The notes under the pieces are model-generated. The model had not been told where the DNA came from. It ran no database searches and saw nothing but the letters and a program-made list of their open reading frames with translations. Positions 41,163-47,749 of a stretch of DNA of 64,000 nucleotides are shown here, one piece after another. The number at the start of each line of letters is the position of its first letter. Within the stretch, counting starts at the first letter, position 1. The position numbers were made by a program, and so were the translations under genes. Where the stretch lies: assembly GCA_000092065.1 (NCBI GenBank), contig CP000586.1; one strand, written 5' to 3'. Origin of the DNA: Ostreococcus lucimarinus (lineage: Eukaryota).

Positions 41163-44100
41163 TCACAGGGCGGTTCGGGCTTTATCTTGCGCGCGACGAA
41201 CGTTTGGTTCGGTCAAGTCTGCGGCGGAGACGTCGCGGAGGACTTCGCGGCACGCGTCGACGACGCGCTCGCGACTGCGCTCGTCGCCGACGAGCTTCTC
41301 CAGTTGGCCAGCCTCGAGGTGTGCCGCGCGACGCGCGGCGGCGAGGCAAACGCTCTCGGGTAAACCAGCGAGACGCGCGACGTTGACACCGTAGCTTCGC
41401 GGACAGTTGCCGCTCGCGAGGGTGTACAGAAAGGTGACCGTTTCGCGTCCGAGCGTCTCGACACCTGCTCCGCTCGGCGTCTCGACTCGACACGCCATGT
41501 GTGCCAACGCCACGTGAGGGTCGCGCGCGTGGTCGTCGGCGAGTCTATGGTAATGCGTGCTGAAGAGCGTACGGCAGCGCTTGTCGATGAGATGCGACGC
41601 AACCGCACACGCGATGGCTGTACCGTCCGCGGTGGCGGTTCCTCTGCCGAGTTCGTCGAGCGCGACTAGGGAATTCGTCGTCGCTCGACGAAGCATCGCT
41701 CCAGTTTCGCTGAGCTCGACCATGAATGTCGACTGCCCACCCGCTAAATTGTCTTTGGCGCCCATGCGCACAAAAACCGCATCCATAGCTGTCATCTCAA
41801 ACTTGGCCGCGGGAACGTCGGCGCCCACGTGCGCCATGATCGCGGCCAAGCAGACTTGCCTGAGGTACGTGGACTTGCCACCCATGTTCGGACCAGTGAT
41901 GAGACAGAAACCCGGATGTTTACCACCAAGCCTGGCGTCGTTCGGAACGAACGCGCGCGCGAGAGAAGACGCGCACGGGTGCGACAGGCCGACGGACTCA
42001 AGCGTCGCGGGCTCGCCGTCTCGCGGTTGCGGGTGCACCTTCGGGGTGCAAACTGCTCCACAAGAAGCGTACATTTCCTCGCTCACGACAGCCAAAGAGG
42101 CTAGAACATCTATGATTGCACCAACACTTGCCGCCGCTTGCCACTCCGAAGCGTTCTCGCAAAACTTTGCGACGATTCGACGGAACACGCCGGCGAGCGC
42201 GTCCTCGCGCGCTTCCTCCGCCGCAACTCGCTTCGCGCGCAAGGGTACCAAATCATCGCACGTGAACCGTTCGTATCCTTTGCGCTTACCTTCACGCACC
42301 CAATGATGAGGGACCTTGGACGCGAGGCGGTCAGGAACTTCGACAAGATGCGTATCTTTGTTTGCATTCACGAAACAAACCTCCGTTTTGTGACCACCGA
42401 GCTCGCCGCGCGCCTCTTCCAACCACGACGCCAGATCCGCGTCCGCTGCTGTAAGTTGCTCCTCGGCAGCGTCCAGATCGGCGTCGACGCCTTGCGCCGG
42501 CTCGATTCTCCCACTCGATTTGGCGGCGTTCCAATCGAACGCAGACTCCATTTCGTCCAGCGCGCTCAGATCCGGCATCGCGACGCCGCCGACTGCGGTG
42601 AACACGTCCTCGCGCGTCGCCGCGGCGTCGTTTACGATGCACAATGCGCGAAGCACGTCAGATTTCTCACATGCATCAACGCACGCCGCGATCGCTTTTG
42701 TAGCGTCGCGAACCGCACGAATACCCTCGAGCGCTGCGAGGAAATCGTTCAACTTTGCTCGCGCCGCATCTTCATACAAGACGACGTGCGAGGCGGATCG
42801 ACCTTTCTCGCCGCTCGATCCGACAACGCGCGAGATGGCGCGTTCCGCGTCTGGCGCGGCGCGCAAAAGCTTGCGCGCAATCCCTGTGGCCTCGATCCCG
42901 CATCCCCGCATCATAGAGACGGCGACTTGTCGAGCTCGAATAGCTGACGCGCTTGTCAAAGGGCGACACACCCAACGGCGCAACAAACGACGACCGGGCC
43001 CGCTCACACACCGATCGAGCGACGCCAAAAGCGTACCCGCGGAGCCACCTGCGGTATTCTCGAGCACCTCAAGCCCAGAAAGTGCAGCGGCATCCATGGC
43101 GACATGCGTAGAGTGTGCCCATCGCGCCAAGTGCTCCCGCGCGCCGGCGTCTGTTGTGTGCAGGGACTCTACTCGCCCTTGTGGCACTAAATCGGCGTCT
43201 ATCAGCGCGGCGCGTAAGTACGCAACGACCGTGCCCCACGCTCCGATACCGCATTCGCGAGCAGGATGGCATGCAGTGTCTCGCATTTCTTTAATGGCTT
43301 CTGGCAAACCAGTCTTAAGCGTCTTGAAGTATCCCTCCGCCTCGGCGTCCTCCAGCGCTTCGTTCGCACTCGTCGACTTAAACGTACGCTGCTGAGCGTG
43401 TGAGCACATATCCAAAACTGCCATCTTCGCTCGCGCGCTCAAGCCAGTGGGCGGAACTAAGATTTCAACCGGGCGCAGCTCCGCAAGTGCTGTGCGCAAA
43501 CAGCTTGCACCTTCGTCGTCGCGCCACGCACCGACGAGGAAACGACCCGTACCGCAGTCTGCAGCGCACAAACCGACCCAACCTTCGCCGTCCTCCTCTT
43601 CGCAGCCGTCTATTATAGAGCAAACGAAGGCAGCATCCGGCGAAGAGTTCAACATACCGGTGTCAACCATCGTACCTTTTGTCAACACTTGAACCATTTC
43701 GCGGCGAACCACAGTGTCCTTGCACGTCTTGTCTTTCTTTTTTCGCTCGGCAAGCTGCGCTGGTGTCTCTGTCTGTTCAATACACACGACGCGGTGACCG
43801 TTGCGAGCGAGCTGCTCGGCGTGCATCGCGTAATTCTTCTCTGGGAATCCAGCGTGCGGTTGCTCGCCGCGCATATACATCAATCCTAAGTCTCGCACAC
43901 CGATGTGCGCGTCCATTTCGAACATTTCATAAAACTTGCCCATCTTGAACAACAATACAGAATCGAAATTCGCCGCCTTGAACTTCCACCACTGCGCCTG
44001 CCCGGGGGAAACCGTCCACTGCACTCCGCTGGCGTCGCGCATTTTTGGAAACGTCGACGGCAACAGCAACGTGGACGGATCGTAGTCCGGATCGTCAGGA

Positions 44101-44837
44101 CGCCGACCATCGGCATCCTTAATCTTCTCCGGTTGCATAAATGGAAATTTCAACCGATCTCGCGCGTCGTATTGCTCCGGACCGACGCCTGCGAGAACGT
44201 CCTGCGCGTTCAAATCCTTTGCCTCTGTCGCCTTCGTCGGCGCCGACGTCGTATTCACCGTCGTCTTCTTTCGTCCATTCGTCGTCGACGTCGGCACCAC
44301 CTTCTTCACCGCCACTTTGGTCGTCTTCTTCTTCTTCACCGGCGTTGACTCGCTCTCTGAGAAATCGTCGTCGTCCTCCTCTTCCTCGTCTTCGCTCGAC
44401 GCCTCGCTCGAATCCGCCTCAAACGCTTCGTCGTCGTCGTCCTCTTCCTCCGCCTCCGCGTCGAAATCGCTCCCACCATCGTCATCGCTCGACTCGATCA
44501 CCATCGTTTTCGCTTTTTTCGCCACACGTCGTCTTCCGGCGACTTTCTCCGCGCTCGCGACGTTCGTCTCTGGCGGCGTCGACGCCGCGGCGACGTTTTC
44601 CTTCTCATCACCGCTCGTGGACGCGCGCGCGCGTTTCCCGCTCGCACTTTTCGCGTGCTCGCGTTCGGGCTCGCGTTCGGGTTCGGCGTCGACGACGGTC
44701 GCGTCCGCGGTCGTCGGCGCCGCCGTCGTCGTCGTCGTCGGCGCGTCGACGCTCTCGCGTTTTGGCGCGGGCGCGAAAAACGACGCGATCGAACGCTGTC
44801 CCGGCGGCGGCGCCGTCGGTTTTTGCGCGCTTCCCAT
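41163..44837 (-). CDS. MSH6: DNA mismatch repair protein MSH6 (MutS homologue) with N-terminal PIP box.
   Basis: MutS domain I (AQWWKFKAANFDSVLLFKMGKFYEMFEMDAHIG). Walker A ITGPNMGGKSTYLRQV. ABC signature/Walker B region (STFMVELSETGAMLRRATTNSLVALDELGRGTATADG). Length 1224 aa with an acidic/Lys-rich N-terminal region, and QRSIASFF (QxxIxxFF) at residues ~14-21. Confidence 0.85.
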   Translation of the reverse strand: MGSAQKPTAPPPGQRSIASFFAPAPKRESVDAPTTTTTAAPTTADATVVDAEPEREPEREHAKSASGKRARASTSGDEKENVAAASTPPETNVASAEKVAGRRRVAKKAKTMVIESSDDDGGSDFDAEAEEEDDDDEAFEADSSEASSEDEEEEDDDDFSESESTPVKKKKTTKVAVKKVVPTSTTNGRKKTTVNTTSAPTKATEAKDLNAQDVLAGVGPEQYDARDRLKFPFMQPEKIKDADGRRPDDPDYDPSTLLLPSTFPKMRDASGVQWTVSPGQAQWWKFKAANFDSVLLFKMGKFYEMFEMDAHIGVRDLGLMYMRGEQPHAGFPEKNYAMHAEQLARNGHRVVCIEQTETPAQLAERKKKDKTCKDTVVRREMVQVLTKGTMVDTGMLNSSPDAAFVCSIIDGCEEEDGEGWVGLCAADCGTGRFLVGAWRDDEGASCLRTALAELRPVEILVPPTGLSARAKMAVLDMCSHAQQRTFKSTSANEALEDAEAEGYFKTLKTGLPEAIKEMRDTACHPARECGIGAWGTVVAYLRAALIDADLVPQGRVESLHTTDAGAREHLARWAHSTHVAMDAAALSGLEVLENTAGGSAGTLLASLDRCVSGPGRRLLRRWVCRPLTSASAIRARQVAVSMMRGCGIEATGIARKLLRAAPDAERAISRVVGSSGEKGRSASHVVLYEDAARAKLNDFLAALEGIRAVRDATKAIAACVDACEKSDVLRALCIVNDAAATREDVFTAVGGVAMPDLSALDEMESAFDWNAAKSSGRIEPAQGVDADLDAAEEQLTAADADLASWLEEARGELGGHKTEVCFVNANKDTHLVEVPDRLASKVPHHWVREGKRKGYERFTCDDLVPLRAKRVAAEEAREDALAGVFRRIVAKFCENASEWQAAASVGAIIDVLASLAVVSEEMYASCGAVCTPKVHPQPRDGEPATLESVGLSHPCASSLARAFVPNDARLGGKHPGFCLITGPNMGGKSTYLRQVCLAAIMAHVGADVPAAKFEMTAMDAVFVRMGAKDNLAGGQSTFMVELSETGAMLRRATTNSLVALDELGRGTATADGTAIACAVASHLIDKRCRTLFSTHYHRLADDHARDPHVALAHMACRVETPSGAGVETLGRETVTFLYTLASGNCPRSYGVNVARLAGLPESVCLAAARRAAHLEAGQLEKLVGDERSRERVVDACREVLRDVSAADLTEPNVRRAQDKARTAL

Positions 44838-45018: not shown

Positions 45019-46716
45019 TTAGTCGCGATAACACACGCGCGTGGCGACGCGAACGATGTCTTCCACCGTGGGGAGGGCCATCTTCTCGAGGTTCTCGGCG
45101 TAAGGCATCGGGATGTCGACGCCGGCGATGCGCTCGACGGGGGCGTCGAGGTAGTCGAAGGCGTCCTCGTTGACGACGGTGGCGATCTCCGCGCCGACGC
45201 CGCACTGCGGCCAGCCCTCTTCGACGACAACCATGCGGTTGGTTTTACGCACCGAAGCCGCGAGCGCGCCGCGGTCGAGCGGGCGGAGCGAGCGGAGGTT
45301 GATGACCTCCGCGTCGATGCCTTGCTCGCGAAGTTGTTCGGCGGCTTCGAGGCAGTAGCCGACCATCTTCGAAAACGCGACGAGGGTCACGTCCGCGCCG
45401 GGCTTCATCACGACCGCCTTACCGATCGGAAGGACGAATTCTTCGTCCATGGCTTCCTTGGGCAACGCAAACTCTTGACCGTACAAGAGTTCGTTCTCCA
45501 AAAACACCACGGGATCCGGGTCGCGAATCGCCGCCTTCATCAAACCGCGAGCGTCTTCGGCGTCGTACGGCGCGAGCACCTTCAAACCCGGAATAGACAT
45601 GTACCACGCGGCGAAGCACTGAGAGTGCTGCGCACCGACTCCCGCAGCCGCACCGTTCGGGCCGCGGAAAACGATCGGAGCGGAAATCGCCCCGGCGGAC
45701 ATGTACAACGTCTTTGCGGCGCTGTTGACGATGTGGTCGATGGCTTGCATGGAGAAGTTGAACGTCATAAACTCGACGATCGGTTTCAAACCCATGAAAG
45801 CGGCACCAACGCCAAGACCAGTGAACCCAGCCTCGGTGATGGGCGTGTCGCGCACGCGATCGGCGCCAAACTTTTGTAACAAGCCCTTCGTGATCTTGTA
45901 CGCGCCTTGGTAGTCGCCGACTTCTTCGCCCATGATGAACACCTTTTCATCGCGCGCCATCTCTTCGCTCAGCGCGCTGTTCAGCGCGTCGCGAACCGTC
46001 ATTCTCGGCGAGTCCGCGGGAAGTTGCTTAGCGACCGGCGCGGCGCGCGCGTCTGAGACGTCCTCCGTCCGCCCGCTCGCCCGCGAGTTTCGCAGCGGCA
46101 CGCCTTGCTCTTTAATAGATCGATAATCTGGACGTTCCAGCACCGCGCGCGCCGCGGTCGCCGTCTCTGTCGCCGTCTCTGTCGCCGTCGTCGTCTCCGC
46201 CGTCTCCTCGGCGACGTAATCCTTAAACGCCGCCACATCCTCCTCGTTTTCGCACATCACGCACACCGCCTTCCCCACCGGAATGTCGTCCGCGTCCCCG
46301 CTCGGCACCAAAATCTTCGCCAAGTACCCCTCCTCCATGGACTCCATCTCCATCACCGCCTTATCCGTCTGCACCTCCGCCAGAATGTCCCCGGTCGCCA
46401 CTCGATCGCCCTCCGCCTTTTTCCAGCTCGCGATCCCGCCGCGCGTCATCGTCGGCGACAGCGACGGAAACGGAATCACCTCGTGCGGCGGGTACGTCCC
46501 GCTCGCGTACGTTCGCGCCCATCCCGGCGCGCGCGCGCGTCTCCACGCCGCGCACCGTCGCGCCGCCGCCGCATCGCGCGTCGTCACCGCGCCGTCGTCG
46601 CCGCGTCGCGTCGCCGACGCCATCGCCATCGATCGCGCGCATCGCGCGTCTCGACTCACCGTCTCGCGACCTCGCCGCGCGGCCGCCGCGCACGCCTCGA
46701 GCGCCGCGCGCCGCAT
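45019..46716 (-). CDS. Pyruvate dehydrogenase E1 component beta subunit fused to an N-terminal lipoyl domain, with mitochondrial-type presequence.
   Basis: The C-terminal 330 aa is near-identical in motif order to human PDHB ([21 protein letters not shown]..., [43 protein letters not shown]...). Upstream, in the same frame, is a lipoyl domain ([22 protein letters not shown]...[25 protein letters not shown]) joined by an Ala/Thr/Glu-rich linker. Start set at ATG 46716 (MRRAALEA...); the ORF extends to 47097 through low-complexity sequence. Confidence 0.8.
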
Positions 46717-46873
46717 CTGCGAAACGCCGTCGCGCTTTCGCGTCGCGTCGTCGCGTCGTCGCGCGTCCGTGTGCGGTCGTCGCGATCGCGAATTCGACGA
46801 ACCCCCCCACACGCGGGTGTTTTCACGCCGGCGCGCCCGTCGCGTCGCCGCGCGCGCGACGACGCGACGCGCG

Positions 46874-47251
46874 ATGCGCGACGACGGCCCGCGCGCCCTC
46901 GTCGAGGGCCTCGACGGCGCCGTCGCCCGCGCCGCGCGCGCGCTCGACGCGCACGCGCGCGGCGCGGCGGACGCGCAGGACGCGCTGTGCGCGCGCGTCG
47001 ATCGATGCGCGGACGCGCTCGAAGCGCTCGTCGACGCGATGCCGACGAGCGCGAGCGAGGCGCACGCGAAGCGACTGCGATCGCTGCGACAGCGCATCGA
47101 TGGACTGGGCGCGAGCGCGAGAGATCTGAGGGACAGGGCGCGCGCGCTGCACGACGACGCGCGCGCGAGCCGACGCGCGGATTCGAGCGCGCTCGCGGCG
47201 CGCGAGGGCGACGAGTTACCGCCGCGAGACGCGGTGTTTCGCGATGGGTGA
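46874..47251 (+). CDS. Small hypothetical coiled-coil protein (126 aa).
   Basis: Sits in the gap between the PDH E1beta start and the UMP1 stop. Amphipathic helical sequence, but Ala/Arg/Asp-biased; weak support. Confidence 0.2.
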
Positions 47252-47335: not shown

Positions 47336-47749
47336 CTAAAACCGACCGACGCTCGGGCCCAAGCCGAGCTTGGCCTCCATGACGGCGTGCGCGTCCGAGC
47401 GCGGGCCTTCCGTGCGCATGTCCTCGGGATTGAGGTAATCCTCGAACCCGAATCGATCGATGTCGCCGGTGAGAATCTGTAACCCTAATCGTTTGCTCGG
47501 CACCGGTCCCGGGAGGCGCTCGACGTCGGTCAAAATCTGTCGCTCGGCGTCCAACTTGGCCGGGATCGCGCCTCCGTGCGCGCGCGCCATCGTCTCTAAC
47601 TTCTTCGCGTACTCCGCGCCGCTCGCGCGTTCCTCTTGCATCACCTGCACGGGGTGCTTCGCGGACGACGCGCCGACGTCGCGCGCGGCGGCGAGGCCGA
47701 GTCGGAGCGTGTCCACGGGTCTTCGCAAGAATTTGATCTCGTCATCCAT
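47336..47749 (-). CDS. Proteasome maturation factor UMP1/POMP.
   Basis: ERLPGPVPSKRLGLQILTGDIDRFGFEDYLNPEDMRTEGPRSDAHAVMEAKLGL aligns to human POMP RLPFLSSSNLSLDVLRGNDETIGFEDILNDPSQSEVMGEPHLMVEYKLGL. 137 aa from MDDEIKF. The upstream part of ORF 47336-48340 is low-complexity and rejected. Confidence 0.7.
   Translation of the reverse strand: MDDEIKFLRRPVDTLRLGLAAARDVGASSAKHPVQVMQEERASGAEYAKKLETMARAHGGAIPAKLDAERQILTDVERLPGPVPSKRLGLQILTGDIDRFGFEDYLNPEDMRTEGPRSDAHAVMEAKLGLGPSVGRF

Follow-up and report, generated by a model that had tools for sequence, protein, structure and literature searches.

In the 64,000-nucleotide stretch of Ostreococcus lucimarinus contig CP000586.1 analyzed here (the window), an intron-less single nuclear gene on the minus strand is predicted to encode a mitochondrial precursor of the pyruvate dehydrogenase (PDH) subunit E1beta, composed of a presequence, a lipoyl domain (LD), a disordered linker of approximately 70 residues, and the E1beta part. 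Our explanation is that an LD was captured onto the green mitochondrial E1beta, that it would act as an extra arm of the complex, and that a constrained motif in the linker would serve for docking; we give this explanation as a whole a probability of about 0.65. Its historical part, judged from sequence comparison, is quite probable: an LD of the E2 type was captured by E1beta, so that the resemblance of the fusion to alphaproteobacterial PdhB would be convergent.

Gene structure and reading frame

The gene comprises the following elements, with residues counted on the 565-aa product.

45019..46716, minus strand: coding sequence of the LD-E1beta fusion, 565 codons plus a TAA stop codon; one frame, three Pfam domains
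46492..46716, minus strand: putative mitochondrial presequence, aa 1-75, Arg/Ala-rich, with an R-3-type site ARTY↓AS at 46501-46518
46216..46491, minus strand: LD unit, aa 76-167; Pfam Biotin_lipoyl core at 46261-46479
46360..46362, minus strand: predicted lipoyl-lysine codon, K119, in QTDKAV
46003..46215, minus strand: inter-domain linker, aa 168-238 (71 residues), predicted to be disordered
46159-46182, minus strand: perfect 2 x 12-bp tandem repeat acagagacggcg encoding TETATETA; this stretch of the linker is variable, and orthologues have in-frame indels here
46069..46152, minus strand: 28-residue linker motif, consensus [AT][RK]A[IV]xERP[DE][YL]R..(3-8)..P.R.SRA
45022..46002, minus strand: PDH E1beta core, aa 239-565; Transket_pyr at 45478-46002, Transketolase_C at 45055-45423
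45832-45849, minus strand: DTPITE within the core, invariant family positions
45436-45459, minus strand: region of the eukaryote-specific insertion, KEAMDEEF, from the core alignment

The minus-strand open reading frame (ORF) runs without interruption from 47097 to the TAA stop codon at 45019-45021, and neither a stop codon nor a frameshift separates the LD from E1beta in the DNA. The Pfam search suggested in an earlier note on this DNA returned all three expected domains, at the positions listed and in the same frame: Biotin_lipoyl (E 8e-16; 58.1 bits versus a gathering threshold of 22.1), Transket_pyr (E 1e-41), and Transketolase_C (E 6e-45). Furthermore, the NCBIfam equivalog model for lipoyl-E1beta, NF008854 (PRK11892; the alphaproteobacterial LD-PdhB), matched with 668.3 bits (cutoff, 454) over positions 5-464 of its 464. 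The earlier note had placed an LD and a canonical PDH E1beta in one open frame, and this description is borne out by the three domains, the full-length NF008854 match, and the absence of a stop codon or frameshift. The SLSPTM peptide that it quoted is found in the window LD with the lipoyl-lysine in the context TDKA, and the linker between the two domains, which it had called flexible, is predicted to be disordered.

The Arg-rich presequence described in the earlier note is likewise present upstream of the LD and contains 17 Arg, no Lys, 4 Asp, and 2 Glu in 75 residues. The sequence ARTY↓AS in it is a classical R-3 processing-type site, located 4 residues ahead of the LD unit, and orthologues have junctions at the same place (RGF↓AA, RAY↓AA, and RAW↓TS), following the pattern RxY/F↓A(S/A) just before the LD. 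From this leader we infer that the fusion protein is probably targeted to mitochondria.

Two start codons come into question, the ATG at 46716 (565 aa) and the ATG at 46629 (536 aa, as in metagenome gene calls). The 127 codons of the ORF upstream of them (46717-47097, minus strand) are antisense to a divergently transcribed Snapin/Pallidin-like gene (46874-47251, plus strand), the position of which was mapped from gene calls on near-identical contigs. This overlap leaves 46716 or 46629 as the real start, and the upstream codons are GC-driven read-through, not coding sequence. The region has a GC content of 71% and contains long spurious ORFs in several frames, of which the 127-codon extension is one example. 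A start at 46716 is plausible and indeed likely, because all orthologues have Arg/Ala-rich leaders of 50-80 residues and one of them (P0002) starts at the Met equivalent to 46716 (MRRVAREAC... versus MRRAALEAC... in the window).

To compare the regions of the gene, we used Nei-Gojobori counts against three Ostreococcus orthologues. The ratio of nonsynonymous to synonymous substitution rates (dN/dS) was approximately 1 in the leader, as expected of a leader, 0.10-0.21 in the LD, indicating purifying selection, and 0.04-0.06 in the core. In the linker ahead of the conserved motif it was 0.5-1.5, and the indels there were in-frame only. This pattern across the regions argues that the LD-E1beta junction is translated and selected in this frame.

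The reference annotation of O. lucimarinus contains the LD only as a partial model of 143 aa that is not part of an E1beta gene. This NCBI entry (P0158, 'predicted protein, partial', strain CCE9901) is 100% identical to our 99-residue LD query and covers the leader and the LD (46201-46629, minus strand). It was obtained in a homologue search with the LD alone, in which the 35 matches were short fragments only and unfit for ranking. As a model of leader plus LD only, it could be taken to mean that two adjacent genes, or a mis-assembly, are read through by chance. However, the entry is flagged as partial, and the DNA shows no stop codon at the point where it ends (...YVAEETAE); the ORF is continuous in independent assemblies, in other species, and in transcripts; and purifying selection in this frame acts on the linker motif. 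We consider such an artefact scarcely credible. Moreover, a 536-aa metagenome protein (P0001) is 99% identical to the window protein and is encoded on contigs with the same eukaryotic neighbors.

Origin of the E1beta core and of the lipoyl domain

The C-terminal part of approximately 320 residues matched human PDHB structures with 434 bits, keeps all invariant family positions, and was modeled by AlphaFold2 with a per-residue confidence (pLDDT) mostly above 90. Besides the Arg-rich leader and its R-3 site, these invariant residues are a sequence hint that the protein may assemble with E1alpha into an active mitochondrial alpha2beta2. When 186 cores were aligned, an insertion of 3 residues (KEAMDEEF versus PE–––DEEF) was found in 84/84 eukaryotic cores and in 0/102 alphaproteobacterial ones; the eukaryotic set consisted of 76 fused proteins, 3 of unknown N terminus, and 5 non-fused proteins including those of human and Gossypium. 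The same division was seen at GAAARV.AQHSQ, where Gly (84/84 eukaryotic) stands versus Arg (102/102 alphaproteobacterial). The window core is 77-78% identical to the non-fused E1beta of the Chloropicon type, 75% to Gossypium, 62-70% to alphaproteobacteria, and 59% to human. In neighbor-joining (NJ) core trees, the smallest clade with all fused proteins never held an alphaproteobacterial sequence (200/200 replicates). The split between alphaproteobacteria and eukaryotes was recovered in 145/200 replicates with the 115-taxon core set, and the alphaproteobacterial clade in 100% with the 22-taxon set. We infer that the E1beta half is most likely an ordinary green-lineage mitochondrial subunit, inherited vertically.

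These data bear on whether a complete alphaproteobacterial LD-pdhB gene was recently acquired by horizontal transfer. The identical order of domains, the full NF008854 match, and 55-57% identity to PdhB of the Terasakiella/Azospirillum type over 86% of the length would fit such a transfer. However, LD and core are both of the eukaryotic type, the core is nearer to plant and Chloropicon E1beta than to that of any alphaproteobacterium, the fused proteins stand apart from the alphaproteobacterial ones in all 200 replicates, and the gene has a presequence and a conserved eukaryotic synteny. Horizontal transfer is thus effectively excluded.

In a Chloropicon-like alga the E1beta is non-fused (P0109), and its presequence (...SRGY↓ASQSE) runs straight into MTVRDALN. 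The Chloropicon-type E1beta (P0109, P0118) fell within the smallest clade of all fused proteins in the 115-taxon core tree, and the 22-taxon core tree leaves this interleaving undecided; if real, it would imply that the LD was secondarily lost or was gained more than once. As a separate observation, Chloropicon primus has two E2-like proteins (P0195, P0354), of which the 563-aa one carries two LDs and the 479-aa one a single LD.

The window LD matched the structures of the human E2 inner lipoyl domain (1FYC and 1Y8N) with 103-104 bits. An AlphaFold2 run with a 59-sequence alignment gave an all-beta LD (residues 49-126, 536-aa numbering) with a pLDDT of approximately 88-96 over most of the domain; judged by its secondary structure, this model agrees with the flattened beta-barrel fold of an LD. 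The lipoyl-lysine is conserved in 20/20 diverse fused LDs, in 97/98 E2 LDs, and in all alphaproteobacterial LDs.

Since whole-protein ranking was swamped by multi-LD E2s, scores were recomputed per domain (phmmer, window LD as query). The fused family scored 108-197 bits. LDs of mitochondrial E2 from named eukaryotes (millipede, Ginkgo, Ceratodon, Apium, Chloropicon, Ichthyophonus, Chlamydomonas, Coccomyxa, and Tetraselmis) scored 95-118 bits with identities of up to 62%, and the best-scoring matches outside the fused family that were tested had the architecture LD / E3_binding / 2-oxoacid_dh. Alphaproteobacterial PdhB LDs scored 57-86 bits (79 from genome loci, 57-82 with a median of 70; protein-search matches reached 86), and 60 PdhC LDs from the same loci scored 58-84 bits (median, 72). 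In line with these scores, a hidden Markov model (HMM) of eukaryotic E2 LDs beat either alphaproteobacterial LD HMM by 14.5-31 bits for all 20 diverse fused LDs.

The LD phylogeny proposed in the earlier note was run by NJ. In a tree of 110 named LDs, eukaryotic E2 LDs and fused LDs together were split from all alphaproteobacterial LDs in 500/500 bootstraps, and in a 347-LD tree fused and alphaproteobacterial LDs were apart in 186/200. The regions flanking the domain divide in the same way. A YPPH N-flank, which reaches past the bacterial Met1, and a D[VI]xAFxDY C-flank are common to the fused LDs and the eukaryotic E2 LDs compared (human, wasp, yeast, and Chloropicon) and are lacking in the alphaproteobacterial consensus; a further 10-residue stretch is also common to fused and eukaryotic E2 LDs. 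Conversely, the fused LDs do not conform to the alphaproteobacterial type (consensus MPALSPTM..EIETDKATMEVEAVDEG..VN..GE) and lack its features EVEAVDEG, VN, and GE.

The fusion was found in other Mamiellophyceae, where the earlier note had proposed to look for it. It is present as a single ORF in Bathycoccus prasinos and in Micromonas-like megabase contigs, and the continuous ORF is kept in three further Ostreococcus lineages, including O. tauri, for which the NCBI model is a single exon of 539 aa labeled 'E1 component beta subunit mitochondrial precursor'. It also occurs as a full-length protein of 549 aa in the genome annotation of Cymbomonas tetramitiformis, in full-length MMETSP transcripts of Pyramimonas sp. 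CCMP2087 (556 aa) and P. obovata (557 aa), and in several environmental lineages. Within Viridiplantae, the named fused proteins belong to Mamiellophyceae and Pyramimonadophyceae only.

The conserved synteny concerns three neighboring genes, which lie around the fusion gene in the same order (UMP1, Snapin-like, LD-E1beta, MSH6) in the three Ostreococcus lineages.

47336-47749, minus strand: UMP1 proteasome-maturation-factor gene, upstream of the fusion gene
46874-47251, plus strand: Snapin/Pallidin-like gene, between UMP1 and LD-E1beta
41163-44837, minus strand: MSH6-type MutS homologue, 1224 aa, 181 bp downstream of the fusion gene; five MutS domains on orthologous contigs

An ORF scan of the 64-kb window revealed no E2 or other PDH ORF.

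The earlier note had offered two origins, a retained endosymbiont-type fusion or a lineage-specific domain shuffle. Retention would mean that LD-PdhB came from the mitochondrial ancestor, passed through the last eukaryotic common ancestor, and lost its LD except in some prasinophyte green algae. Alphaproteobacteria do have the required source, as LD and core lie in one ORF at 79/80 of their best loci, and NF008854 spans the algal protein from end to end. Moreover, since the PdhB and PdhC LDs of alphaproteobacteria are not sorted into clades of their own, two LDs of an endosymbiont could have formed one eukaryotic clade, and in the tree of named LDs the fused LDs branch as the sister group of nearly all E2 LDs and are not deeply nested among them. 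On the other side, retention needs independent losses of the LD in streptophytes, in Chloropicon-type algae, and in every other supergroup, whereas the named fusions are confined to two classes. The fused LDs carry the YPPH and D[VI]xAFxDY flanks of eukaryotic E2 and not the alphaproteobacterial features, and alphaproteobacterial linkers are plain Ala/Pro sequences that lack the linker motif. Retention was also not supported by the core, with its eukaryote-only insertion and Gly and its closest relatives among non-fused green-lineage E1beta proteins, nor by the LD scores and the 500/500 LD split, which point to eukaryotic E2. We therefore regard it as unlikely. The restricted distribution and the flank motifs favor capture over retention. 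Thus the domain shuffle is the better supported of the two origins, although it is not specific to this alga, since Pyramimonadophyceae have it as well.

Several points weigh against our explanation. Inside the eukaryotic LD clade, the fused LDs were placed with supports of just 2-39%. Alphaproteobacterial PdhB LDs were monophyletic in 0/500 bootstraps and intermixed with PdhC LDs, with a median identity of 74% within a genome, so an LD pair from one endosymbiont could give the same eukaryote-versus-alphaproteobacteria topology. The E2-LD reference set was partly picked by similarity to the query, which biases the per-domain and HMM scores, and the NJ trees were based on approximately 90 columns for the LD and approximately 320 for the core. 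Transcript support covers orthologues (Pyramimonas), not O. lucimarinus itself. A metagenome scan with Chloropicon E2 for the mitochondrial E2 of Mamiellophyceae gave 23 loci, none of them assignable to this class. Finally, we know of no study that has settled, since the Zymomonas description, the role of the LD on alphaproteobacterial E1beta.

Among the 120 E2s listed (at least 495 bits), nearly all of which have two or three LDs, none was named Ostreococcus, Micromonas, or Bathycoccus; this hints at a shorter or more divergent E2 in these algae.

For the capture that we favor, the following course can be proposed. The E1beta of an early chlorophyte would have acquired a copy of a eukaryotic E2p-type LD, no later than in the ancestor shared by Mamiellophyceae and Pyramimonadophyceae; the fusion would later have been lost, or never fixed, in Chloropicon-like algae.

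Two side observations concern LDs outside the algal fusion. In the alphaproteobacterial pdh loci, the PdhB and PdhC LDs have a near-identical consensus, and in 7/25 genomes the nearest LD of the PdhB LD was that of the genome's own PdhC, which suggests repeated duplication or homogenization between both genes. In addition, stand-alone LD ORFs of 233-304 aa (P0273 at L111:6001-6765, P0345, and P0312) consist of a presequence, an LD, and a Ser/Pro/Ala-rich tail with a conserved C-terminal motif of its own (R.Y..DA.VL.GP.GW.PGRR). The contig of P0273 is eukaryotic (P-type ATPase, GST, and Argonaute) and has no E1beta or E2 exon within 6 kb of the ORF. The stand-alone LD is 60% identical to the window LD, shares with it the junction RxF↓AAGTLPPHEV, and adjoins the fused LDs in the tree with low support. 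These ORFs may encode an orphan lipoyl protein; alternatively, they could be a remnant of the fusion or a stage on the way to it.

A constrained motif in the linker

The 28-residue motif is the most original element of the locus. It was found in Ostreococcus, Micromonas-like algae, Bathycoccus, Pyramimonas, Cymbomonas, and environmental lineages, but not in alphaproteobacterial PdhB linkers. Compared with the orthologue P0004, its 28 codons contain 18 synonymous differences and 1 nonsynonymous difference; it is as constrained as the catalytic core. At the same time, AlphaFold2 gave most of the linker, the motif included, a pLDDT below 50. Constraint combined with predicted disorder is what would be expected of a short linear motif for interaction or processing. 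A single exception among the fused eukaryotic lineages, related to Pyramimonas (P0076 and P0080, MERC marine eukaryote transcripts), lacks ERPDYRP...SRA, and its linker reads ...PKRAAKSSIVSTTEQAV... instead; the motif is thus not obligatory for the fusion.

An HMM of the motif, built from 55 sequences, was searched against 1983 ORFs from E2s, alphaproteobacterial loci, and the window. It recovered the ORF of the fusion gene with 66 bits, and the rest scored no better than E = 1.3; no counterpart of the motif was detected in approximately 240 E2s or in the alphaproteobacterial loci. Two candidate relationships were rejected. By eye, the motif resembles EEKGIDLSQVKGTGPGGR and could be a degenerate peripheral subunit-binding domain (PSBD). 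However, an HMM for the PSBD, derived from 167 matching sequences that were mainly E2s, gave at most 4.5 bits on the linkers (E of approximately 0.04 in an 18-sequence database) and a nonsignificant 3.5 bits on the window linker after the LD, and the Pfam scan did not match E3_binding (PF02817) at E <= 0.01. The second candidate was the end of alphaproteobacterial linkers, 'EPDYxGP', as a homologue of the algal 'ERPDYRP': P[DE]Y occurs in 2/79 alphaproteobacterial loci and lies at about -10 from the core versus about -50, and we attribute the likeness to chance.

Processing offers another reading of the motif. The single chain could be imported as a polyprotein and cut in the linker motif (e.g., after ..R.SRA) by the mitochondrial processing peptidase, yielding a free lipoylated LD and a conventional E1beta. 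A segment constrained like the catalytic core yet predicted to be disordered would suit a recognition or cleavage site, the motif holds R-2-like contexts (SRA↓S), and the stand-alone LD ORFs P0273 and P0312 indicate that a free LD may function somewhere. Yet the motif has no aromatic R-3 site, unlike the N-terminal junctions, its approximately 28 residues far exceed what a cleavage site needs, and the fused P0076/P0080 lineage does without it. Cleavage of this kind is decidedly unlikely; it is a matter of maturation alone and would agree with both origins. In our explanation, the constrained motif would most likely dock on a partner within the complex.

Proposed function and comparison with known systems

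In the established chemistry of PDH, a lipoylated LD must reach E1, E2, and E3 one after the other, and in textbook PDH complexes substrate is channeled by lipoyl arms on E2 (and E3BP). A tether of approximately 70 residues measures approximately 250 Å when fully extended, by a geometric estimate well above the size of the E1 heterotetramer. In the algal protein, import and removal of the presequence would be followed by lipoylation of K119, and the LD would then serve as an additional swinging arm, its tether being able to reach across the whole E1 heterotetramer. The LD could be reductively acetylated at its own or a neighboring E1 active site and could hand on the acetyl group and the reducing equivalents, either to the E2 core and E3 or to LDs carried by E2. 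Each alpha2beta2 E1 would add two LDs, and an arm carried by E1 would make the substrate of the E1 step locally more concentrated. A changed PDH stoichiometry in this alga, as envisaged in the earlier note, is plausible. Alternatively, the LD could be a docking platform for a regulator.

An E1 with an arm of its own would alter the arm count and geometry of a eukaryotic PDH complex. If the fusion is convergent, two lineages would have separately tethered the substrate domain to the enzyme that catalyzes reductive acetylation, providing a natural experiment on why alphaproteobacteria keep LD-E1beta. This idea is testable, since Ostreococcus, Micromonas, and Bathycoccus are easily handled as models and are among the abundant primary producers of the sea. 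A further idea, which is tentative and somewhat doubtful, is that early-diverging chlorophytes re-created LD-E1beta and added a disordered motif with an interaction absent from characterized PDH complexes. The motif could, for example, dock E1 or the arm to the E2 core or to E3, replacing a contact of the E3BP/PSBD type, or it could serve internal processing; if true, this would imply a structurally distinct mitochondrial PDH complex.

Neveling et al. (1998/1999) reportedly described an N-terminal LD on the E1beta of Zymomonas mobilis. PMC7873978 cites this protein, and the reference list of PMC7494870 also includes it. Our full-text literature search found no paper on a eukaryotic LD-E1beta fusion. 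Fused proteins have already been deposited under generic annotations (O. tauri and Cymbomonas), and the architecture is visible in databases.

The LD-PdhB of alphaproteobacteria and the algal protein have an LD, a flexible linker, and E1beta in one polypeptide, with the lipoyl-lysine in a DKA context. As the earlier note had said, the architectures are formally equal, NF008854 matching in full length and the three domains following in the same order. The algal core and LD, however, are both of the eukaryotic type, and phylogenetically the protein falls outside the bacterial family; equivalog HMMs such as NF008854 nevertheless label it as a member. Furthermore, an E2 ORF lies at the same locus in 60/80 alphaproteobacterial genomes, whereas the algal gene is nuclear and monocistronic and includes a presequence, and its linker contains the constrained 28-residue motif, whereas alphaproteobacterial linkers are Ala/Pro-rich and have no such motif.

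Other systems resemble the algal protein in part. In 2-oxoacid dehydrogenase complexes, an LD can also be carried by a subunit other than E2, as by E3 (PdhD) of Neisseria meningitidis, Alcaligenes eutrophus, and Mycoplasma hyopneumoniae (PMC7873978), but these proteins are bacterial, the host subunit is E3 and not E1beta, and sequence kinship is limited to the LD fold. The LDs of eukaryotic E2p (DLAT; human inner LD, 1FYC/1Y8N) and E3BP are similar to the algal LD in scores, in the YPPH/AFxDY flanks, and in belonging to the same clade (500/500), whereas the algal LD is attached to E1beta and is followed by neither a PSBD nor an acyltransferase core. Finally, mitochondrial E1beta of other eukaryotes (human PDHB, 1NI4/2OZL/3EXE; plants and green algae) has the same core of approximately 320 residues with the 3-aa insertion and the signature residues; in those proteins the presequence meets the core directly, whereas the alga inserts approximately 160 residues between them, namely, the LD and its linker (aa 76-238).

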